64,000 bases of DNA from Oscillospiraceae bacterium (lineage in GTDB: Bacteria > Bacillota > Clostridia > Oscillospirales > Ruminococcaceae), in assembly GCA_017521325.1 (NCBI GenBank), contig JAFXCV010000061.1, positions 8,332-72,331 on the forward strand, read 5' to 3'. Below, one piece after another: positions 22,017-44,059 of the stretch (positions are counted from its first letter, which is position 1; each line of letters starts with the position of its first letter). Made by a program: the position numbers and the translations under genes. The notes under the pieces were generated by a model. That model made no database searches, was not told where the DNA came from, and worked only from the letters and a program-made list of their open reading frames with translations.

Positions 22017-22039
22017 TATCTTTTATTATCGCTATGAGA

Positions 22040-22518
22040 GGATGCAGCCCTTCGGGGCGCATCCTCGTCTTTTTTCAGGGTGCATTGTACGGCTGCCCCC
22101 ACCCCTGCCCTCCCCCTGAGGGGGAGGGAGAATAAATCGGGGGCTTCGCCCCCGTACCCCCTTGTGGGGATGCCACCCCACGTCCCATTTAAGGATGCAG
22201 CCCTTCGGGGCGCATCCTCGTCTTTTTTCGGGCTGCATTGTTCGGCTGCCCCCACCCCTGCCCTCCCCCAAGGGGAGGGAGAATAAGTCGGGGGCTTCGC
22301 CCCCGTACCCCCCTTGTGGGGATGCCGCCCCACGTCCCATTTAAGGATGCAGCCCTTCGGGGTGCATCCTCGTCTTTTTTCGGGGTACATTGTACGGCTG
22401 CCCCCACCCCTGCCCTCCTCCAAGGGGAGGGAGAATAAGTCGGGGGCTTCGCCCCCGTACCCCCTTGTGGGGATGCCGCCCCACGTCCCATTTAAGGGCT
22501 GCCCTTCGGGGCGCATCC
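22040..22518. repeat. Tandem array: three full units (153, 152 and 151 bp) plus a 23-bp partial unit of a GC-rich multi-hairpin element; each unit starts with a terminator-like hairpin
   Basis: Units at 22040-22192, 22193-22344 and 22345-22495, with the partial at 22496-22518. Each unit starts with GGATGC-A-GCCC-TTCG-GGGC-GCATCC plus TCGTCTTTTTT. This is followed by the hairpins CCCTCCCC..GGGGAGGG, CGGGGGCTTCGCCCCCG and GTGGGG..CCCCAC. Confidence 0.9.
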
Positions 22519-22594
22519 TTATTTGTTTATTGCATTCCCCCGAATCTTATGATATAATAGTAGCAGCAACAAAATCAATAAATAGGAGGAAGCC

Positions 22595-33068: not shown

Positions 33069-34145
33069 ATGAAAAAACGTATCGGTATCCTGACCAGCGG
33101 CGGCGATTGTCCGGGACTGAATGCCACGATCCGTGGTGTTGCAAAGGCATGCTTTGAGCGCATGGGTGAGGAAAATGTGGAGATCGTCGGCATTTCCAAC
33201 GGCTACTACGGTCTGATTCACGGGCTGACAAAGGTGATGCAGCCCTCCGACTTTTCCGGCATTCTCACACAGGGCGGCACGATCCTCGGCACAAAGCGTC
33301 AGCCGTTCAAGATGATGACGGTCATCGGCGATGACAACGTGGACAAGGTCAAGAACATGAAGGAAACCTACCGCAAGGAAAAGCTCGACTGCCTGCTGAC
33401 ACTCGGCGGCAACGGCACGCACAAGACCTCCAAGCTTCTGGCGGATGAGGGACTCAATGTCATTGGTCTTCCCAAGACCATCGACAACGACATCTACGGC
33501 ACGGACGTGACCTTCGGATTCCACACGGCTGTGGATATTGCAACCGATGCCATCGACAGACTGCATACGACTGCTGCAAGCCATTCCCGTATTATGGTTT
33601 GCGAGATCATGGGCAACAGAGCCGGCTGGCTGACGCTGTATGCAGGCGTTGCAGGCGGTGCGGATATCATTCTCCTGCCGGAGATTCCGTATGACATCGA
33701 AAAGGTGTGCGATGCAGTTGTAAAGCGCAGCGTGAAGGGCAAAACCTTCTCGATTCTGGCAGTTGCTGAGGGCGTGTATGATGTGCAGGAGGCTGCGCTC
33801 AAGAAGAAGGAACGTGAAAAGCTTCGTGCAGAAAACGGCAATGCGACAAACCGCATCGCCAAGGAAATCGAGGAGCGTACCGGCATTGAAGCCCGTGTAT
33901 GCGTTCCCGGCCACATGCTGCGTGGCGGTTCTCCCTCTGCGTATGACAGAATGCTCGCTACCCAGTTCGGCGTGCATGCTGCTAAACTCATTGCCGAGGA
34001 GAAATTCGGCAGAACCGTAGCTCTCGTGGACGGCAAGATCACCTCCAACAAGCTCTCTGATATTGCAGGCAAGAAAAAGCTTGTGGATCCCAAGTGTCAG
34101 GAGGTTCTGGCAGCAAGAGATCTGGGCATTTCGTTTGGTGATTAA
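33069..34145 (+). CDS. pfkA: 6-phosphofructokinase
   Basis: GILTSGGDCPGLNA, LGGNGTH and PKTIDNDI motifs; 358 aa. Confidence 0.95.
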   Translation: MKKRIGILTSGGDCPGLNATIRGVAKACFERMGEENVEIVGISNGYYGLIHGLTKVMQPSDFSGILTQGGTILGTKRQPFKMMTVIGDDNVDKVKNMKETYRKEKLDCLLTLGGNGTHKTSKLLADEGLNVIGLPKTIDNDIYGTDVTFGFHTAVDIATDAIDRLHTTAASHSRIMVCEIMGNRAGWLTLYAGVAGGADIILLPEIPYDIEKVCDAVVKRSVKGKTFSILAVAEGVYDVQEAALKKKEREKLRAENGNATNRIAKEIEERTGIEARVCVPGHMLRGGSPSAYDRMLATQFGVHAAKLIAEEKFGRTVALVDGKITSNKLSDIAGKKKLVDPKCQEVLAARDLGISFGD

Positions 34146-34163
34146 GCGTAACAATCGTAATAT

Positions 34164-34211: not shown

Positions 34212-34502
34212 TTACCCGAACCATTTCATACATGCGACAATTGCAATGAATATCGCCACTGCAATGGAAAGGACCGCAGTAGTTTTGCTGTGATTCCACT
34301 CACGGATGCCCTGTGTGAGCATGAGAACCCCCAACAAGGGCATGAAGATGTTATCCGCATTTTCCATCACACCGGTCAGTCCAAGAATCACAAATACGAT
34401 TCCACCAATGCTGGCAATCATGCCGATGATCATTGTAATTTTCACATACAGCGGGCGTTCCCTCCATGTACGGATGATGCGTTCCTTTGTTTCCTGTTTC
34501 AT
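34212..34502 (-). CDS. Small integral membrane protein (96 aa, three predicted TMs), unknown function
   Basis: ATG 34502 with a GGAGGT RBS. Sequence MKQETKERIIRTWRERPLYVKITMIIGMIASIGGIVFVILGL... Confidence 0.55.
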   Translation of the reverse strand: MKQETKERIIRTWRERPLYVKITMIIGMIASIGGIVFVILGLTGVMENADNIFMPLLGVLMLTQGIREWNHSKTTAVLSIAVAIFIAIVACMKWFG

Positions 34503-34605
34503 AAAATGTACCTCCATTGATTGGAATAGCAAGCTGACAATAGTATTATAGCACATTGTTATGAAAACGTCAATATCGGATACTTGTCATCGCAATTTCT
34601 GCCGC

Positions 34606-34740
34606 TTGTGAAAAACAGTTTTTCACAATTTCTTTGTGAAATTCTTGACAAAGGGGCGATTTTGTAGTAAAATAGAAAGTATAGTGGAAAGTTATATCAT
34701 TTTGAAAGGACTGATTACAATGGGTTTGACATTAACAGAG
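34606..34740 (+). repeat. Diverged duplicate (about 90% identity) of the acn upstream dyad, Rex-box, promoter, RBS and first 7 codons
   Basis: Aligns base-for-base with 36611-36745 (14 mismatches in 135). Copy promoter TTGACA 34645-34650 / TAAAAT 34668-34673. The mini-ORF ATG 34720...TAG 34741-34743 encodes MGLTLTE. Confidence 0.9.
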
Positions 34741-34860
34741 TAGACGGCAAGATCACTTCCAACAAGCTCTCTGATATTGCAGGCAAGAAAAAACTTGTGG
34801 GTCCTAAGTGTCAGGAGGTTCTGGCAGCAAGAGATCTGGGCATTTCGTTTGGTGACTAAG
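34741..34860 (+). repeat. Diverged duplicate (about 96% identity) of the 3' end of pfkA, including the stop codon
   Basis: Aligns with 34027-34146. There are five mismatches, four of them synonymous in the pfkA frame. Confidence 0.9.
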
Positions 34861-34878
34861 CAGCGCATCACAGCAATT

Positions 34879-35986
34879 GAACAACAACAATACCCCCAAT
34901 GCCTATGATCGATAGTTATATAGAAGTATTACAAAGCCACATTTGATGTTTATGTCAAAAGTGGCTTTGCGTTGCTTACGGCATTGACTGATTATAGTAT
35001 ATTTGCTATAATCAGTGTATGAAATAATAATTCTCTTAAATCTTATGGCTAAAATGCTGACAAGACATAATTGTCTAGTGGAAAACACGTCATTTCTCAC
35101 TTTATGACGTGGATTTCTAATGATATTCTTAGTATAATGGACAGTGAAAGGAGGAACGAAATGATAGACCAGATTAAAATTGGTGGTTTTCTAAAAGAAT
35201 TACGTAAAGAAAAGGAACTAACACAAGAACAGTTGGCAGAAAACTTTGGTGTATCTTCTCGAAGTGTATCTCGTTGGGAAAATGGCAATACTATGCCAGA
35301 ATTGGGCATTTTAGTCGAGTTGGCAGATTTCTATGAGATTGACATCAAAGAAATCATTGATGGTGAAAGGAAAAGTGAGATTGTGGAAAAGGAAGAGAAA
35401 GAAACTTTACTGAAAGTTGCCGAATATGCTGATAAGCAGAAAAGGCAGGCAATATTGAAAGCTGTAATTATTTTTTCATTGGAAATGATCTGCTGTGGTT
35501 ATACGATTGCCATGGCGTTCATGGTACTCATGGGTGATGGTCAAATCAGTGCGGGATATGCTGTTATACCGTCACTGATTACATTTGTCTTTTCTGTTAT
35601 TCTGGCAATAAACGCAAAGGATTTTGTGACAAATAAACAGAAGTGAGCATCAATTTGAAAGTTGCTTAAAACAACAACTCACAATTTGTAGGACTCGTGA
35701 AAATTTCAGTTTGACAGAGCGACAAATTCCAATAGGATTAACACATCCAATCGATAAACCGTCGAGCGCCTCTTATTGTATGCTTCGCCCTTATGGTGAA
35801 ATTGTATAATCACCGTACAGCATCGACCACACCGAACAAGCATTAAGCTCTGATTGAGCGTATCAAGTCATTCGATGAAGATGTCAAAGTTGTGCTTGAA
35901 GCTAAAATAACCCGTGAAGAATTTCTTCACGGGTTATACTTCTTTATTAGTACGCTGCCTAGGCATTGGGGGTATTACTATTGTTC
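34879..35986. mobile_element. 1.1-kb AT-rich segment bounded by 26-bp imperfect inverted repeats, carrying an XRE-TM gene (candidate non-autonomous mobile or invertible element)
   Basis: Left repeat gaacaacaacaatacccccaatgcct (34879-34904) matches the reverse complement of the right repeat aggcattgggggtattactattgttc (35961-35986) at 23 of 26 positions. The interior is visibly lower in GC than the flanks. No transposase or recombinase ORF is present. Confidence 0.35.
35161..35646 (+). CDS. Membrane-anchored XRE-family (HTH_3) transcriptional regulator
   Basis: ATG 35161 with an AAAGGAGG RBS. HTH segment LKELRKEKELTQEQLAENFGVSSRSVSRWENGNTMPEL. Two C-terminal TMs. An upstream promoter TTGACT-17-TATAAT (34984-35012) is embedded in an 11-bp perfect dyad ACTGATTATAG/CTATAATCAGT (34987-35016). 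Confidence 0.85.
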   Translation: MIDQIKIGGFLKELRKEKELTQEQLAENFGVSSRSVSRWENGNTMPELGILVELADFYEIDIKEIIDGERKSEIVEKEEKETLLKVAEYADKQKRQAILKAVIIFSLEMICCGYTIAMAFMVLMGDGQISAGYAVIPSLITFVFSVILAINAKDFVTNKQK

Positions 35987-36004
35987 ATCAAAAACGCAAT
36001 TCCC

Positions 36005-36541
36005 TCATCTTCTCTTGAAGCGACGATGCTTGTTCGACCGATAATACTGCTGTGCAGTTCTTTTCGGTTCCTGATTCTGGTTGTACAGCTTCAGCAAGTA
36101 CGTCAGCCCGAACAACGGGATCGGAATCAGGATCAGCACCGTATCCGAAAAGTCCTTAAAATTTGTGATTTTCAGGCTAAAGAATGCAGCAATCGCAAGG
36201 ATGATCACATATCCAAGAATGCAGATCGTGCATTCTCCCGACGAAACCTCCGATGTCCTGCGGATGCCGATCAGCCGCAGAAGATGGTAGCCGATTCCGC
36301 TGAGCGCCAGAACGATCGTAAAGCAAAGCATAACGTCAAGAAAATCCTTGGACTGCGCAGCACCTTCCGATGTGAGCAGAACGGCTAAAGAGGAAAAATC
36401 AATCACCCCGACAAAAGGAAGCTTCAGATTGGAAAGCCCCTCGGGAGAATGCAGCATTTTCACCAGCGAATATGCACCGTAGCCGAGCGTTGCGGTCAGC
36501 AGATTATAGGTCAGAACTCTGAGAAATTCTTTAAATGTCAT
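36005..36541 (-). CDS. Integral membrane protein (178 aa), unknown function
   Basis: Four to five hydrophobic segments and a basic C-terminal tail (KHRRFKRR). It occupies the same position relative to the acn promoter as the 96-aa ORF does relative to the promoter copy. Confidence 0.55.
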   Translation of the reverse strand: MTFKEFLRVLTYNLLTATLGYGAYSLVKMLHSPEGLSNLKLPFVGVIDFSSLAVLLTSEGAAQSKDFLDVMLCFTIVLALSGIGYHLLRLIGIRRTSEVSSGECTICILGYVIILAIAAFFSLKITNFKDFSDTVLILIPIPLFGLTYLLKLYNQNQEPKRTAQQYYRSNKHRRFKRR

Positions 36542-36610
36542 GATATACCCCTTTTCTGTGGTAATTTATGTTATATTATACCATATTACCGCAAAAAAGT
36601 CAACATTTCA

Positions 36611-36633
36611 TTGCGATAAACAGTTTTTCGCAA
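36611..36633. promoter_or_regulatory. 23-bp dyad TTGCGATAAAC-A-GTTTTTCGCAA upstream of the acn promoter (candidate operator)
   Basis: 10 of 11 arm positions are complementary. The paralogous copy at 34606-34628 reads TTGTGAAAAAC-A-GTTTTTCACAA, with changes on both arms that preserve the symmetry. Confidence 0.4.
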
Positions 36634-36638
36634 AATCC

Positions 36639-36656
36639 TTGTGAAATTCTTGACAA
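36639..36656. promoter_or_regulatory. Candidate Rex operator overlapping the -35 of the acn promoter
   Basis: TTGTGAAATTCTTGACAA matches 17 of 18 positions of the published Rex-box consensus TTGTGAAnnnnTTCACAA. An identical sequence lies in the duplicate at 34634-34651. The rex gene is encoded downstream of icd. Confidence 0.5.
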
Positions 36657-36678
36657 AGAAGCGATTTTGTAGTAAAAT
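36650..36678 (+). promoter_or_regulatory. acn promoter (TTGACA-17-TAAAAT)
   Basis: Hexamers at 36650-36655 and 36673-36678, about 45 nt upstream of the acn ATG. Confidence 0.6.
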
Positions 36679-36724
36679 AGTAAGTATAGTGGAAAGCTAT
36701 ATCATTTTGAAAGGATTGATTACA

Positions 36725-38662
36725 ATGGGTTTGACTTTAACGGAAAAGATCCTGCGTGCGCACCTCGTTGACGGTGAGCCGGTCAAGGGTCAGGAAATCG
36801 GTATCCGCATCGACCAGACACTGACGCAGGATGCGACAGGTACCATGGCGTACCTCGAATTTGAGGCAATGGGTGTGCCGAGAGTGCGTACAGAGCGCAG
36901 TGTGGCATACATTGACCATAATACTCTGCAAAATGGCTTTGAGAATGCCGACGACCACCGTTTCATCGGTTCTGTAGCCAAGAAGCACGGCATTCACTTC
37001 TCCCGTCCCGGCAATGGCATCTGCCATCAGGTACATCTGGAACGCTACGGCATTCCGGGCAAGACCCTCATCGGCTCTGACAGCCACACTCCCACAGGCG
37101 GCGGTATCGGTATGATCGCCATCGGTGCAGGCGGTCTGGACGTTGCAGTTGCAATGGGCGGCGGCGCATATTATATCACCTATCCGCAGGTTGTTAAGGT
37201 AAACCTGACAGGCAAGCTCTCTCCGTGGGTTGCAGCAAAGGATGTCATCCTCGAAGTGCTGCGCAGACTGTCCGTTAAGGGCGGCGTTGGCAAGGTCATC
37301 GAATACTGCGGCGAAGGTGTCAAGACACTCTCCGTTCCGGAACGTGCAACCATCACCAACATGGGCGCAGAGCTGGGTGCAACGACTTCCATCTTCCCGT
37401 CCGATGAAATTACAAAGCAGTTCCTCGAAGCACAGGGCAGAGGCGAGGTATGGAGCGAACAGTCCGCAGATCCCGATGCTGTATACGATGAAGTGGTTGA
37501 CATTAACCTCTCCGAGCTGGTTCCCCTGGCTGCATGTCCGCACTCCCCTGACAATGTCAAGAGCTGCGAGGAAATCGGCAAGCTGAAGATTGATCAGGTC
37601 TGCATTGGTTCCTGCACCAACTCTTCTCTGCTCGATATGATGAAGGTTGCGCACATTCTCAAGGGCAAGACCGTACATCCCGACGTTTCCCTGTCCATCG
37701 CTCCCGGCTCCAAGCAGGTGCTGAATATGATGGCTGACATGGGTCTTTTGTCCATTATGATCGCAGCAGGCGCAAGAATTCTCGAATCCGCCTGCGGTCC
37801 GTGCATCGGTATGGGTCAGTCCCCGAATTCCGGCGGTATCTCTCTGCGTACCTTCAACAGAAACTTCCTCGGCAGAAGCGGAACCAAGGATGGTCAGATT
37901 TATCTGGTATCCCCGGAGCTTGCTGCAATTTCCGCAGTTACAGGCTATCTGACAGACCCCAGAGAAATCGGTGAAATGCCCGAATTCGTACTGCCTGAGA
38001 AGTTCACAGTGAATGACAATATGATCGCACTTCCTGCATCCGAGGAGGAGGCAGCAGACGTGGAGATCCTGCGTGGCCCGAACATCAAGCCCTATCCGGA
38101 GACTGCTCCGCTGGAGGCTTCCATCGAGGCACCTGTTTCCCTCAAGGTTGAGGACAACATCACAACAGACCACATCATGCCCGCAGGCGCAAAGATCCTT
38201 CCCCTGCGTTCCAACATTCCTGCAATTTCCCAGCACTGCTTCACAGTTTGTGATGAAGCTTTCCCGACTCGTGCAAAGAAACTGGGCAAGAGCATCATCG
38301 TGGGCGGCTCCAACTATGGTCAGGGCAGCTCCCGTGAGCATGCGGCTCTCGCACCGCTGTATCTGGGCATCAAGGCAGTTCTCGTGAAGTCCTTCGCAAG
38401 AATCCACCGTGCAAACCTTGTCAATGCAGGTATCCTGCCGCTGACATTTGTCAACGAAGCGGATTACGATGCAATTTCTCAGGGCGATGTTCTGGAGCTT
38501 GCTGACATCCGTGCTAAGGTAGAAGCAGGCGAAACACAGCTGACAGTCCTCAACAAGACCACCGGAAAGGAAATTCCGGTACTGTGCGAGCTGACAGGCA
38601 GAACCAAGGATATCATGCTCGCAGGCGGTCTGCTTGACTACACAAGAGAGAATCTGAAGTAA
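36725..38662 (+). CDS. acn: Aconitate hydratase (about 645-aa type)
   Basis: MGLTLTEKILRAHLV... start. Fe-S ligand Cys motifs (IGSCTNS, ACGPCIGMG). C-terminal swivel domain. ATG 36725 follows an AAAGGA RBS. Confidence 0.95.
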   Translation: MGLTLTEKILRAHLVDGEPVKGQEIGIRIDQTLTQDATGTMAYLEFEAMGVPRVRTERSVAYIDHNTLQNGFENADDHRFIGSVAKKHGIHFSRPGNGICHQVHLERYGIPGKTLIGSDSHTPTGGGIGMIAIGAGGLDVAVAMGGGAYYITYPQVVKVNLTGKLSPWVAAKDVILEVLRRLSVKGGVGKVIEYCGEGVKTLSVPERATITNMGAELGATTSIFPSDEITKQFLEAQGRGEVWSEQSADPDAVYDEVVDINLSELVPLAACPHSPDNVKSCEEIGKLKIDQVCIGSCTNSSLLDMMKVAHILKGKTVHPDVSLSIAPGSKQVLNMMADMGLLSIMIAAGARILESACGPCIGMGQSPNSGGISLRTFNRNFLGRSGTKDGQIYLVSPELAAISAVTGYLTDPREIGEMPEFVLPEKFTVNDNMIALPASEEEAADVEILRGPNIKPYPETAPLEASIEAPVSLKVEDNITTDHIMPAGAKILPLRSNIPAISQHCFTVCDEAFPTRAKKLGKSIIVGGSNYGQGSSREHAALAPLYLGIKAVLVKSFARIHRANLVNAGILPLTFVNEADYDAISQGDVLELADIRAKVEAGETQLTVLNKTTGKEIPVLCELTGRTKDIMLAGGLLDYTRENLK

Positions 38663-38696
38663 GCAAGCCTTTTCCATGATATAAAAGGTAAAGCAA

Positions 38697-38915
38697 ATGA
38701 TGTTAAGTATGTATGAATCCATGGCACGGCGCATCAGAATTCGTTCCGCTTCCGATGTCGGACTTCTGATCGTTCTGCTGGCAATCGTGATTGCTGCACA
38801 GTATTTCTTACCCAAGTATTTCACGGGCATCTCTGAAACAAAACTGAAAGTGATTATTTATGCAATTACAATCCCCATTGCTGTGGTCTGGTTCTTTTTG
38901 GTAGACTCACAGTAA
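38697..38915 (+). CDS. Small membrane protein (72 aa, two TMs), paralog A
   Basis: MMLSMYESMARRIRIRSASDVGLLIVLLAIVIAAQYF... RBS AAAAGGTAAAG. It has a paralog at 38984. Confidence 0.5.
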   Translation: MMLSMYESMARRIRIRSASDVGLLIVLLAIVIAAQYFLPKYFTGISETKLKVIIYAITIPIAVVWFFLVDSQ

Positions 38916-38948
38916 CAATCAATTTCTAAAATTACAGAGGTAATTCCC

Positions 38949-38984
38949 ATGGCTGATAAAATCACAGGAGAGAATCTGAAGTAA
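38949..38984 (+). other. Hybrid mini-ORF MADKITGENLK: icd RBS and codons 1-5 fused in frame to the last 6 codons and stop of acn; its stop overlaps the next ATG (TAATG)
   Basis: agaggtaattcccATGGCTGATAAAATC matches the icd start (39233-39260). ACAGGAGAGAATCTGAAGTAA matches the acn 3' end (38642-38662). Confidence 0.6.
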
Positions 38985-39220
38985 TGATGCATACGATCGA
39001 CTTTCTCATGCGGCGGTACAGTAGAAGCCGCATAGATTCGCCGGAAGAACTTGGCTGCCTGATTGTGAGTCTTGCAGTGGTATTTGCGGCGCAGTATTTC
39101 ATTAAAAAATTCTATCCGGATGTATCGGAAGCACTGCTGAAAGCGATCTCCTACGGCATCATCTTCGTGATCGTCATCATCTGGGTTTTTGTCGTTCCGC
39201 AAGGGACAAGCAATTCATAA
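38984..39220 (+). CDS. Small membrane protein (78 aa, two TMs), paralog B
   Basis: [39 protein letters not shown]... shares the AAQYF core and topology with the 72-aa ORF. It has no RBS of its own; the start is coupled to the mini-ORF stop. Confidence 0.5.
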
Positions 39221-39245
39221 ATTCAATCAACAGGAGGTAATTCCC

Positions 39246-40460
39246 ATGGCAGATAAAATCAAAATGACCACTCCCCTCGTCGAAATGGATGGCGACGAGA
39301 TGACCAGAATTCTCTGGCAGTGGATTAAGGACATCCTCATCACTCCTTATGTGGAGCTGAATACAGAGTACTATGACCTGGGTCTGGAATATCGTGAAAA
39401 GACCAAGGATCAGGTAACCTTCGACAGCGCAGAGGCTACCAAGAAGTACGGCGTTGCAGTAAAGTGCGCAACCATCACACCCAACGCTGCAAGAATGCCC
39501 GAATACAACCTCTCCCAGATGTGGAAGTCCCCGAACGGCACGATCCGTGCAATTCTGGACGGTACCGTATTCCGTACACCCATTCTCGTAAAGGGTATCA
39601 CGCCCTACATTCCCACATGGACACAGCCGATCACCATCGCTCGTCATGCATACGGCGATGTTTATAAGAACACCGAGATGCAGGTAAAGGGCGGCGGCAA
39701 GGCGGAACTCGTTTTCACCGACAAGGACGGCAACGAAACACGCCAGCTCATCCATGAATTCACAGGCGACGGCATCATTCAGGGTCTGCACAACATTGAC
39801 AATTCCATCGCAGGCTTTGCAAGAGCATGCTTCAACTACGGTCTGGATCTGAAGCAGGATGTATGGTTTGCAACAAAGGATACCATTTCCAAGCAGTATG
39901 ACCACCGCTTCAAGGACATTTTCCAGGAAGTATTCGACGCAGAGTACAAGGAAAAGTTTGAGGCTGCAGGTATTGAATATTTCTACACACTGATCGACGA
40001 CGCAGTGGCTCGTGTCATCCGTTCCAACGGCGGCTACATCTGGGCTTGCAAGAACTATGACGGCGACGTTATGTCCGACATGGTTTCCACCGCTTACGGC
40101 TCTCTGGCAATGATGACTTCCGTTCTGGTATCTCCCGACGGCATCTATGAGTACGAGGCTGCACACGGCACGGTGCAGCGTCACTACTACAAGCACCTCA
40201 AGGGTGAGGAAACCTCCACAAACTCCGTAGCTACCATCTTTGCATGGAGCGGCGCACTGCGCAAGCGTGGTGAGCTGGACAATATTCCGGCACTATGCGA
40301 TTATGCGGACAAGCTGGAGAAGGCAACAATTCAGACCATTGAAGACGGCGTGATGACGGGTGACCTGTACCTGCTGTCCTCTCTGGAGAACAAGAAGAAG
40401 GTAAATTCCAAGGAATTCCTGGAAGAAATCAACGTTCGCCTCGCCGCTTTGATGCAGTAA
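39246..40460 (+). CDS. icd: NADP-dependent isocitrate dehydrogenase (IDH1-like subfamily II)
   Basis: [22 protein letters not shown]... and CATITPN motifs; 404 aa. RBS AGGAGG. Confidence 0.95.
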
Positions 40461-41252: not shown

Positions 41253-42086
41253 TTAGTCTTCCTTCTTCTTAGCAACGATAGCAACGCCACCCAGGATAGC
41301 TGCTGCAGCTGCTACTCCTACGATCGGCAGAACGTCAGTTGTGCCTGTTGCAGGAGAACCAGTGCCAGGAGTTGTGGATGTAGCTGTGCCTGTGCCTGTT
41401 GTTGTAGTTGTTGTAGTTGTCTCAGAAGACTCAGTTGTTGTAGTTGTCTCAGACTCAGTTGTAGTTGTCTCAGACTCAGTTGTAGTTGTCTCAGACTCAG
41501 TTGTTGTAGTGGTTTCCTCAGTTGTTGTTGTAGCCTCTGTTGTCGGAACACCAGTAATCTTGATCCAGCCATCTACAGCATCAGCAGAGCCAGCAGCAAC
41601 ATAGTCAGCCTTAGTGGTTGTATCGCCCCAGATGTGCTTCTTGCCTTCCTGGTCCTGAGCTGCGTATGTGATGTCGAACTGATCGCCAACAGCAGCTGTC
41701 TCCGGAACCTTTACAACGATACCGCAGATGATCATGTCGGACTTCTTGTATGTTCTTGCGTTAGCGCCGTTTACCCAAGCGAACTCAGCGTCGCTGCTCT
41801 TAGCAGCTTCAACAGCCATCATAACTTCCTGAACATCCATATCAACTGTGAAAGAGCAGCCTTCTTCAACGCCTACGCCAAATGCGAATGCATTGATACC
41901 AGCGTTCTCTGTCAGAACGATGTTGATCGGTACTTCATAGTTCATAGCCTTCAGTTCGTCCAGATCAATCTCAACCTGATCGATCTCAACTGTTGCGCCT
42001 TCTGCGGATGCGGAAGCAGGAATAGCTGCTGCGCATGCAACCAGAGACATTGCAGCAACTGCTGCCATAATCTTCTTAAAATTCAT
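41253..42086 (-). CDS. Cell-wall-anchored single-cohesin protein (ScaE-like anchoring scaffoldin)
   Basis: ATG 42086 (RBS AAAGGA). Signal peptide MNFKKIMAAVAAMSLVACAAAIPASA. A cohesin-like module of about 150 aa. A (TESETTT)n Thr-rich linker. A sorting-signal-like C-terminus: SPATG, then a hydrophobic stretch, then KKKED. Confidence 0.75.
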   Translation of the reverse strand: MNFKKIMAAVAAMSLVACAAAIPASASAEGATVEIDQVEIDLDELKAMNYEVPINIVLTENAGINAFAFGVGVEEGCSFTVDMDVQEVMMAVEAAKSSDAEFAWVNGANARTYKKSDMIICGIVVKVPETAAVGDQFDITYAAQDQEGKKHIWGDTTTKADYVAAGSADAVDGWIKITGVPTTEATTTTEETTTTTESETTTTESETTTTESETTTTTESSETTTTTTTTGTGTATSTTPGTGSPATGTTDVLPIVGVAAAAAILGGVAIVAKKKED

Positions 42087-42163: not shown

Positions 42164-44059
42164 TTATTCCTCTGTGGAACCCATTACTTCGCCCCAGATT
42201 GTTGCATCGGACTTGCCGGGGTTTGCACCCTTTTCTGCTGCAAACTGGAGGATACCTGCTGCATCAAGTGCATTCAGGTCAGAACCATCCTCGCCGCAAT
42301 CTCTGGACTCGCCAAATACGTCAGCCAGGAAGTATGCCAGTGTTTCGAGGCCTGCATTCTCATCGGAGTACAGGGAAACATCTTCGCCTGCACCTCTTGC
42401 AGCTGCATAAACGAGAACCTTAGCAGCGTCGATTGCATTTGCTTCGCTGTCGAGGTCTGCGTCACCCTTCACGCCTACGAAGATTGCTACATCAGCCTCT
42501 TCTACCAGCTCAGGCTCATGACCTACGGGTGTGTAGTATACATACAGAGATGTTGCTACATATGCAGTGCCTGTTTCCTCAAAGATCATTGCAGGTGTCA
42601 GGCCTTCAATCGGACCATTTTCATCCAGACCAAAGGAGATCTGAGACATTACATCATACTCATTCTCGTCAACAACGAGCTTTGCAGACTCTACCAGCTC
42701 TTCAGCTGCCAGAGGTGTTTCATCGTGAGAGAAGAAGTAGTTCACACCATCAGAAACTACTACAACGTCCAGACCGGGCTCATCCGTGGGAGGCTGTGTA
42801 GGATCAGTCTCAGTGGGATCAGTCTCAGTGGGATCTGTCTCTGTAGGATCTGTCTCAGTGGGATCTGTCTCTGTAGGATCAGTCTCAGTGGGATCTGTCT
42901 CTGTAGGATCAGTCTCAGTGGGATCTGTCTCAGTAGGATCTGTCTCAGTGGGATCTGTCTCAGTAGGATCTGTCTCAGTGGGATCTGTCTCTGTCGGCTC
43001 TTCTTCCTTAACAGTGTAAGTGATCACTCTCTTGATGTCAAGCTTGCCGGAACCGGAGAAGGTGTTGATGTCGCCCTTTGCGCTTGCATCAATTACCTTT
43101 ACAACGCTGAACTCTACGATCTCATAATCGTTAGCAGCTTCCTTCTCTTCGAAGTAAGCTCTCAGTTCTTCAACGTTAGCCTCGTCAGCCAGTGTGCCGC
43201 TTGCTGTAGCTGTGCCTGCACCGCCTGCAACGGAAGCATCTACTGCGATCTCAATGATATCATCAGCAACTGCTGCCAGATCGTCAGTTGTAACATCAAC
43301 ATTGATCTTGCCATCAGTTGTGTCAGCAACCAGAGTGATTGCCTTTGCCAGAACCTTGGCAACAACTGCCTTGTCCAGCACTTCAGCTACTGTACCGGGA
43401 ACCTTATCAACGTACTTGTTGTCTGCAAATTCTTCCTTGAACTGAGCAAGGATCTCATCGCAGGTGCCGGAATAAGCAACGGACTTTTCTACTTCCTTAG
43501 CCTTTTCAATTGCCTTCAGAGCCTTTTCAGGAAGCTCTGTGTCAATCAGCTCTACCTGGAACGGAACCTCTGTAGAAGCTGCCAGATCGCCTGTCTTAGC
43601 AGTGATCTTTACTGTGCCTGCTGTTGCAGGAATCTTGCCGTTCTCAGAACCTGCATAGTCGCCCTTAATGGTAACTACGACTGCATCTGCACTGATTTCT
43701 GCCTCTGCAGAACCAGAAAGAATCAGCTCTCTTACAAGCTTTGCATAGTCAGAATCGCCCTTTACGGACTCTGCCAGTGCGTTTACGTCAAGTGCAATTG
43801 TCTTGCCAGCCAGGGAGTTTACAGCGTTGTACATTGTAACATTCCACAGGGATGTCTGCTCCCAAACTCGTGTGGTTCCGTCATCGGACACGAGCTTTGC
43901 ATAATCTCCATCAGTAGGAACGTTCATGAATGTATCAACTGTCAGTGTTGTAGAAGCCTGTGCATCTTCAGCAAAAGCCACAGCAAACACTGTTTGTGTC
44001 AGAGCAACCGGTACTGCAATTGCAGCAGCCATCGCTCTTTTCAGGAATGACTTCTTCAT
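42164..44059 (-). CDS. Secreted surface protein with (PTETD)n linker and C-terminal X-module plus atypical dockerin (XDoc; CttA/ScaB-like)
   Basis: Signal peptide MKKSFLKRAMAAAIAVPVALTQTVFAVAFA. 13-14 PTETD repeats. The dockerin has an insert: GDADLDSEANAIDAAKVLVYAA...CGEDGSDLNALDAAGILQFAA. Confidence 0.8.
   Translation of the reverse strand: MKKSFLKRAMAAAIAVPVALTQTVFAVAFAEDAQASTTLTVDTFMNVPTDGDYAKLVSDDGTTRVWEQTSLWNVTMYNAVNSLAGKTIALDVNALAESVKGDSDYAKLVRELILSGSAEAEISADAVVVTIKGDYAGSENGKIPATAGTVKITAKTGDLAASTEVPFQVELIDTELPEKALKAIEKAKEVEKSVAYSGTCDEILAQFKEEFADNKYVDKVPGTVAEVLDKAVVAKVLAKAITLVADTTDGKINVDVTTDDLAAVADDIIEIAVDASVAGGAGTATASGTLADEANVEELRAYFEEKEAANDYEIVEFSVVKVIDASAKGDINTFSGSGKLDIKRVITYTVKEEEPTETDPTETDPTETDPTETDPTETDPTETDPTETDPTETDPTETDPTETDPTETDPTETDPTETDPTQPPTDEPGLDVVVVSDGVNYFFSHDETPLAAEELVESAKLVVDENEYDVMSQISFGLDENGPIEGLTPAMIFEETGTAYVATSLYVYYTPVGHEPELVEEADVAIFVGVKGDADLDSEANAIDAAKVLVYAAARGAGEDVSLYSDENAGLETLAYFLADVFGESRDCGEDGSDLNALDAAGILQFAAEKGANPGKSDATIWGEVMGSTEE
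42798..42992 (-). repeat. 13 tandem 15-bp coding repeats (PTETD linker)
   Basis: gt[ag]ggatc[at]gtctc[at] iterated 13 times, in frame within the XDoc gene. Confidence 0.95.

Follow-up and report, generated by a model that had tools for sequence, protein, structure and literature searches.

Homology-facilitated illegitimate recombination (HFIR) was described for the transformation of Acinetobacter, Streptococcus pneumoniae, and Pseudomonas stutzeri and for conjugation in E. coli (PMC3240628; refs 41, 42, and 47 in PMC5361080), and it has been invoked for arrays of orphan immunity genes with gene-end remnants at type VI secretion system (T6SS) and rhs loci of Vibrio (PMC5361080). A process termed 'C-terminal displacement' forms arrays of orphan modules at rhs and contact-dependent inhibition (CDI) loci and in the T6SS effector-immunity clusters of Vibrio cholerae (PMC5361080, refs 44–46). 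Here, we report a well-documented new example of this known kind of recombination product from an unusual, housekeeping setting. It lies in a window of 64,000 nt from Oscillospiraceae bacterium GCA_017521325.1 (contig JAFXCV010000061.1, positions 8,332–72,331, forward strand; positions below are those of the window) and comprises two diverged small genes, hereafter named s1 and s2, which stand in tandem between the aconitase gene acn and icd and are separated by a piece of the 5' end of icd joined to a piece of the 3' end of acn. The host is an uncultured gut Oscillospiraceae species, whose Icd is 98% identical to that of the metagenome-assembled genome (MAG) JAZQAA01 and 88–91% identical to those of Porcipelethomonas and Ruminococcus flavefaciens.

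The most probable origin of this arrangement, to which we assign a probability of roughly three in four, is recombination of an A-type with a B-type chromosome, one end of the exchange being homologous and the other illegitimate, which left a heteroallelic tandem stack. As in HFIR, one side of the exchange would lie in conserved homologous sequence and the other at microhomology (here 'CA'), foreign DNA would have been added beside resident DNA with short duplicated pieces of the flanking genes remaining, and each stacked unit is the sole occupant of its site elsewhere (in the comparison loci L095 and L115, and in L116/L117 at pfkA–acn). The differences from HFIR are that the mechanism is read here from its product only, that the insert is not unrelated DNA but the same intergenic cassette in another allelic version, and that two events of the same topology flank one gene. 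The locus likewise resembles orphan arrays, since diverged alleles of a small downstream gene pile up in tandem, a 3' remnant of the upstream gene stands in front of the displaced unit (acn before s2 and pfkA before the B spacer), and the alleles are alternatives in some strains and stacked in others. Unlike those arrays, it is flanked by the housekeeping genes pfkA, acn, and icd instead of polymorphic toxin genes, the upstream gene encodes an aconitase, neither s1 nor s2 matches a Pfam or NCBIfam family above cut-off, no more than two units make up the array, and the downstream gene has contributed its 5' end to the scar as well. An ordinary tandem duplication, made by illegitimate recombination between sister chromosomes, would also give a head-to-tail repeat with one novel junction at microhomology, whereas here the interiors are 52% identical (acn–icd) or unrelated (pfkA–acn) and the ends are 89–96% identical.

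The two units of the acn–icd spacer, 38641–38962 and 38963–39260, align end to end in head-to-tail orientation with a single novel junction at 38963/38964. The 3' end of acn reads GAC TAC ACA AGA GAG AAT CTG AAG TAA, with the stop at 38662, and s1, which has its own Shine–Dalgarno sequence (SD, AAGGT), begins 34 nt past that stop. It is followed by the string ACAGAGGTAATTCCC ATG GCT GAT AAA ATC ACA GGA GAG AAT CTG AAG TAA TG, in which the icd and acn fragments delimited by the repeat finder overlap by 2 nt ('CA', 38963–38964); both gene-end repeats gave 0 chance matches in 100 shuffles when up to 3 mismatches were allowed. The first-pass annotation of this DNA had read the string as the icd SD and first five codons fused in frame to the last six codons and stop of acn, giving a mini open reading frame (mini-ORF) that encodes MADKITGENLK and whose TAA overlaps the ATG of the second small ORF (TAATG, 38982–38986). 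Both statements were reproduced at the same coordinates, the TAA (38982–38984) sharing a base with the s2 ATG (38984–38986). Its estimate that the junction fragments are about 90% identical to their parents was too low, as 95–96% was measured (fractions in Table 1). No terminator was found on the plus strand between acn and icd, on which basis acn, s1, s2, and icd are probably co-transcribed.

The icd/acn join was recovered in 22 sequences, corresponding to seven haplotypes, from independent assemblies of different samples and from NCBI MAGs. Contigs were gathered by exact-sequence look-up of s1, s2, and close variants, and every retrieved contig that reaches the site bears the identical join, whether it came from MEGAHIT-style (k141) or SPAdes-style (NODE/scaffold) assemblies or from Logan contigs. 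All data are metagenome assemblies, and the contig of the GTDB representative MAG (JAZQAA010000352.1, L015) starts inside icd at residue 23, a break that adjoins the stacked junction; both facts could suggest that an assembler concatenated the alleles of two co-occurring strains. This explanation was rejected, its residual probability being negligible, as different assemblers produced the same adjacency in many samples although only 2 nt are shared, and the substitutions between strains, which fall inside the junction itself, are strain-specific. From the way assemblers work, a join with a 2-nt overlap needs spanning reads in a de Bruijn graph. The junction is genuine. Gene-end fragments of this kind can break MAG assemblies, the contig of the species representative ending here.

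Sister genomes hold the two units singly. In L095, a 43.6-kb contig from the gut metagenome ERR695595, the order is HlyIII–pfkA–96aa(-)–acn–34 nt–s1like–icd–rex, and each flank is single-copy. In L115, a 37-kb contig from ERZ15610164 that was reached via a homologue of the 178-aa protein described below, the order is HlyIII–pfkA–173aa–acn–TAATG–s2like–icd–rex; its acn stop overlaps the start of s2like exactly as at the window junction, and its acn end aligned by BLAST straight into position 38963 of the window. Thus, as the first-pass annotation had proposed for alleles, relatives carry one small ORF or the other, with s1like only in L095 and s2like only in L115. An intermediate was also observed: L116/L117 show pfkA–287aa–179aa–acn and are thus B-only at pfkA–acn, and L011, which comes from the MAG that also contains L117, has the s1 + s2 stack. 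The states at pfkA–acn and acn–icd are accordingly A/A in L095, B/B in L115, B/AB in L117 + L011, and AB/AB in the window. These comparisons support the reading that, in the lineage of the window, the A and B states stand in tandem on either side of acn.

The spacer between pfkA and acn was said by the first-pass annotation to show an event of the same topology, and copies of the pfkA end (95%) and of the acn promoter (89%) were indeed found there. The last 122 nt of pfkA (34026–34147) are the parent of the orphan pfkA copy, the acn/pfkA join has 0–2 nt of microhomology, and both stacks have the form [X..cargoA..first 5–7 codons of Y] / [last 22–122 nt of X..cargoB..Y]. The cargos here are unrelated proteins; that of the A type is called in other assemblies as a 96-aa protein (34212–34502) with a GGAGG SD. 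At its 5' end acn adjoins the B-type spacer without a break, and at its 3' end the A-type s1 unit; each copy of the acn promoter bears signature bases of its adjoining allele lineage: the copy after the 96-aa gene has GGGGCG and ACATTAACAGA in common with L095, and the acn-proximal copy is closest to the B-only L116 (6/134 differences) and to L115 (10/134). The spacer of the icd SD (TTCCC versus TCCCA) was discarded as an allele signature, since TTCCC also occurs in the A-type genomes L097 and L103.

Table 1. Features of the stacked spacers on both sides of acn (window coordinates).
Feature	Coordinates	Strand	Basis or remark
pfkA, 358 aa	33069..34145	+	Pfam PFK
A-type cargo, small membrane protein	34212..34556	-	longest ORF 114 aa; sole cargo in L095
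Orphan A-type acn promoter, 5' untranslated region (5'UTR), and first 7 codons	34606..34744	+	89% identical to 36611-36749
Orphan pfkA 3' end, last 122 nt, left end of B unit	34740..34861	+	95% identical to 34026-34147
Strain-variable insert in B spacer with XRE-type helix-turn-helix (HTH) membrane-protein gene	34878..35987	.	55-nt imperfect inverted repeats
B-type cargo, 178-aa membrane protein	36005..36541	-	homologue P0040 (73% identity) sole cargo in L115
Functional B-type acn promoter, 5'UTR, and start	36611..36749	+	
acn, aconitase, 645 aa	36725..38662	+	ORF and translation; Pfam Aconitase on the identical gene in L001/L007
Parent copy of acn 3' end, last 7 codons (first partial) and stop	38641..38662	+	repeat search
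s1, 72 aa, predicted two-transmembrane (2-TM), A-type allele	38697..38915	+	orthologue alone in L095
Orphan icd SD and first 5 codons, right end of A unit	38937..38964	+	27/28 identical to 39234-39261
Hybrid mini-ORF MADKITGENLK*, 5 icd codons + 6 acn codons + acn stop	38949..38984	+	translation
Orphan acn 3' end, left end of B unit	38963..38984	+	21/22 identical to 38641-38662
s2, 78 aa, predicted 2-TM, B-type allele	38984..39220	+	orthologue overlaps acn stop in L115
Genuine icd SD (from 39234) and icd (39246-40460, 404 aa)	39234..40460	+	

In this clade, a small 2-TM gene lies between acn and icd and occurs as deeply diverged alleles, in the A-type order acn, 34-nt spacer, s1, icd and the B-type order acn–TAATG–s2–icd. 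In the proposed scheme, A-type and B-type chromosome segments would have recombined in the lineage of the window, with the homologous end of the exchange lying within a conserved gene and the illegitimate end joining icd codon 5 to the 22nd-from-last base of acn at 'CA'. The product would keep both alleles in the order acn–s1–[icd SD + 5 codons / acn last 22 nt]–s2–icd, and an event of the same type would have stacked the A (96-aa) and B (178-aa) spacers between pfkA and acn. The path may have run stepwise from B/B (L115-like) through B/AB (L117 + L011) to AB/AB (window). In another version, a 4.2-kb fragment (34740–38964) replaced the interior of the resident acn and made both junctions at once; this would require A/B and B/A parental types, which were not observed, and it was not adopted, the stepwise path being preferred because it uses observed states only. 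We infer the mechanism and its polarity from the sequences compared here; the opposite polarity, or the one-step replacement, may apply instead.

The relative ages of the alleles and of the join are central to this interpretation. Synonymous sites between s1 and s2 are saturated (proportion of differing synonymous sites, pS, 0.81), nucleotide identity is 52%, and 18 of the 32 identical residues are encoded by different codons, while the junction fragments differ from their parents at only 1–4 of 50 nt in each haplotype. For scale, synonymous divergence (dS) between the window and L095 or L115 is 0.5–0.9 across pfkA, acn, icd, and the small ORFs. The window and L107 differ at 4–5 of 53 junction positions, which is about neutral for those strains (dS 0.17–0.24), and therefore selection is not what keeps the junction parent-like. 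Because the s1/s2 synonymous sites are saturated and the junction fragments remain 95–96% parent-like, these data indicate that the alleles are much older than the join, which by the same measure is approximately as old as the diversification of the species complex. A separate observation concerns an A/T polymorphism at the third position of an Ala codon (GCA/GCT), which occurs both in genuine icd (39251) and in the orphan copy (38954), with combinations that vary among loci (L107, L013, and L014); either mutations in parallel or an exchange of sequence, now and then, between the two 28-nt repeats may account for it.

The same measurements bear on the alternative that [acn 3' end–small ORF–icd 5' end] was anciently duplicated in situ in a common ancestor, with the copies diverging into s1 and s2, sister species each losing one of them by recombination between the direct repeats, and the junction fragments kept parent-like through gene conversion or selection. 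That the two units align end to end, that s1 and s2 have the AAQYF core in common and fall together in their family, and that deletion between direct repeats would leave scar-free single states all agree with such a history, and the A/T polymorphism just described could hint at exchange between the copies. Even so, this history is quite improbable: it would have to reconcile the pS of 0.81 between s1 and s2 with adjoining, presumably unconstrained fragments that lie 2–8% from their parents, and it does not account for a divergence that is not uniform along the unit, the ends being 95–96% and the ORF interior 52% identical. Gene conversion is an unlikely remedy, as the repeats are only 22–28 nt long, which is short for RecA-dependent conversion; nor does selection keep the junction parent-like, which evolves freely between strains, its SD having been hit repeatedly. 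Moreover, s2 falls outside the entire s1 group, the two promoter copies carry signatures of the allele lineages, and the cargos between pfkA and acn are unrelated, so that divergence after duplication cannot explain that stack.

Several points count against recombination between A-type and B-type chromosomes as the origin of the stack. An A-only genome within the species complex of the window was not found by look-up of the exact 96-aa protein, all six contigs (6/6) that carry this protein and reach far enough showing the stack, and the A-type parent is therefore known solely from the sister species. The s2like ORF of L115 (4640–4880, minus strand), the only single-state B-type s2, contains a nonsense codon, an in-frame TAA at codon 41 (AAA to TAA) after which the frame continues; the codon marks the ORF as a recent pseudogene or else stems from a sequencing error. 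Sliding identity, which was run on pfkA, acn, and icd against L095 and L115 as the closest reference genomes at hand, gave no more than a faint sign of the B-to-A crossover expected along acn: the first ~225 nt show 0.90–0.97 identity to L115 versus 0.86–0.91 to L095, with no preference beyond. Direct-repeat recombination in a stacked ancestor would also yield clean single states; this reverse direction is the less likely one, its main weakness being that the orphan fragments are too parent-like for an event that predates the species splits. At the mini-ORF, two haplotypes have T or C in place of the core G of the SD, two further ones differ in the spacer, and RNA folding around the s2 start revealed no structure that would enforce coupling (z = -0.36).

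These last two points concern the translation of s2. The first-pass annotation had stated that s2 has no ribosome-binding site of its own, which is correct for the usual distance, with no SD at 5–10 nt, and overlooks an AGGAGAG at -18..-12, whose GGAG core lies 13 nt away from the start codon. Termination–reinitiation coupling at overlapping stop and start codons (TAATG, ATGA) is common in bacterial operons, for instance in gene pairs of the trp operon. The present case is alike in that an upstream stop overlaps the ATG of s2, which has no SD at 5–10 nt, and in L115 and L016 acn and the small ORF overlap in the same way; it differs in that the upstream ORF is an accidental 11-codon hybrid of gene fragments. 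Native TAATG with real acn is thus found both in L115 and in a family member of Porcipelethomonas (L016), and in L097–L099 there is a 4-nt overlap between the small ORF and a PARG-like ORF upstream of it. As judged from these overlaps, the TAATG coupling is the native acn–s2 arrangement, brought along with the last 22 nt of acn. Ribosomes that load at the orphan copy of the icd SD (GAGG, with the 8-nt distance to the ATG that is also seen at genuine icd) would terminate at TAATG and then re-initiate on s2, whereby the mini-ORF would replace the ribosome supply that acn gives in B-type genomes. Translation of s2 via the mini-ORF is plausible, and s2 is presumably translated by some route because it has been under purifying selection since stacking.

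Whether the mini-ORF is itself an adaptation is a different matter. It might have been selected as a coupling device if s2 needs ribosomes from an upstream ORF that ends on TAATG; its start, frame, and stop are intact in 7/7 haplotypes, s2 remains under purifying selection after stacking despite the lack of an SD at normal spacing, and family members commonly overlap whichever ORF lies upstream. We nevertheless consider such a role rather unlikely. The mini-ORF spans only 36 nt and dS among the strains is at most ~0.24, so intactness is expected by chance; its SD core and spacer vary, the orphan SD reading GAGG, GAGT, GAGC, or GGAGG among strains, whereas the SD of genuine icd is the same in every haplotype and in L115, L097, and L103. 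An in-frame fusion has a prior of 1/3 and is not special because ribosomes would reach s2 in the other two frames too, of which one stops at TGA (38977–38979), 5 nt short of the s2 ATG, and the other runs into s2. In addition, the AGGAGAG could give weak independent initiation, and no RNA structure occludes the s2 start. The mini-ORF is more probably a by-product of the join that inherited an existing stop/start overlap. A leader peptide or attenuator-type upstream ORF was rejected on the same fold statistic and for want of an Rfam family; Rfam gave no family match anywhere in the window.

The small proteins form a family of 69–78 aa that is tied to the acn–icd spacer across several genera. 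In the Ruminococcus/Porcipelethomonas clade it consistently lies between acn and icd and is strongly divergent between close relatives. The family was retrieved when s1, s2, and two homologues taken from the loci were used in a profile search; a word-based homologue search with s2 alone returned two close variants only, and a JGI metagenome scan with s2 returned zero relatives. Weak matches of s1 and s2 to AgrB, DUF7859, and MSC_0882 were below threshold, probably reflecting transmembrane (TM) composition, and were dismissed. An AlphaFold model of s2 based on the family alignment (pLDDT 68.6, moderate confidence; helices 3–14, 20–43, and 49–70) suggests a two-helix hairpin preceded by a short, basic helix at the N-terminus.

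Within the family, s1 and s2 are homologous (BLASTP E = 3e-14) and cluster together. The homology and the AAQYF core proposed in the first-pass annotation were thus borne out, and its 35–40% identity was replaced by a measured 44% overall (32/72) and 51% over a 45-aa core. Identity within the s1 group is 73–83%, and s2 is 42–46% identical to all s1-group proteins, those of other species included. The ratio of nonsynonymous to synonymous divergence (dN/dS) within the lineage is 0–0.3 for s1 and 0.09–0.38 for s2, and between species it is 0.10 (s2 versus L115) and 0.30, indicating that both proteins are under purifying selection. A mosaic allele was noted in L106 (541–756, P0027), in which residues 1–17 are s1-type (MMLSIYESMARRIRIRS) and the remainder is similar to the 'LQKFCPN' type found in Porcipelethomonas-like genomes; on either side of it, acn and icd of L106 are 87–90% identical to those of the window.

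The setting of the family is itself variable. In the Ruminococcus flavefaciens/Porcipelethomonas clade, the acn–icd spacer ranges from ~95 nt to ~1.8 kb (L016–L025, L042, L043, and L097–L105) and carries TraX-like membrane proteins of 234–265 aa, PARG-like proteins of 229–247 aa, and assorted small TM ORFs, which marks it in these genomes as a hot spot for variable cargo. In more distant relatives, acn and icd are nearly adjacent.

A more far-reaching proposal, to which we give little credence, is that s1/s2 and the linked 96-aa and 178-aa cargos constitute a long-lived trans-species allelic system flanking acn in gut Oscillospiraceae, in which both alleles are kept as advantageous, like orphan immunity genes, the mini-ORF was co-opted as a coupler, and both stacks stem from one episode and a single donor. 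If this were true, the hybrid mini-ORF would keep a displaced allele expressed. The recombinational origin preferred above would make the locus an unusually clean natural case in which illegitimate plus homologous recombination between related genomes adds an allele rather than replacing one, with both parental states and one intermediate still visible in public assemblies, and in a housekeeping operon rather than a toxin locus. It would suggest that gene-end fragments of 20–140 nt in intergenic spacers can mark such events and that an accidental mini-ORF can inherit a pre-existing stop/start coupling, and it brings to notice an uncharacterised family of small 2-TM proteins.

Further features of the pfkA–acn spacer were recorded. 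A promoter scan placed TTGACA-17-TAAAAT at 34645–34673 in the orphan acn promoter, which is left with only the seven-codon ORF MGLTLTE* (34720–34743), whose stop was made by the join; its transcript would enter the pfkA fragment and the B spacer and run antisense to the 178-aa gene. The B spacer is interrupted by an insert of ~1.1 kb with low GC content (33–40%) and terminal inverted repeats that are 76% complementary, which contains an XRE-type HTH gene (35161–35646, plus strand) with a hydrophobic C-terminal tail. At the same position, L108–L111 and L116/L117 have a 287-aa minus-strand ORF and L115 has neither, and the insert looks like a small mobile or exchangeable cassette within the B spacer.

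Elsewhere in the window, positions 22039–22519 hold a 152-nt tandem repeat of 3.2 copies with 94% identity, each unit of which contains GC-rich hairpins with T runs behind them; neither a tRNA nor an Rfam match was found in this repeat. Downstream of rex, two minus-strand ORFs contain coding repeats of 21 nt (41410–41520) and 15 nt (42749–43031). These repeat-bearing ORFs vary among strains, with lengths of 256–282 aa and 587–631 aa, the longer one showing a weak match to Extensin_1.

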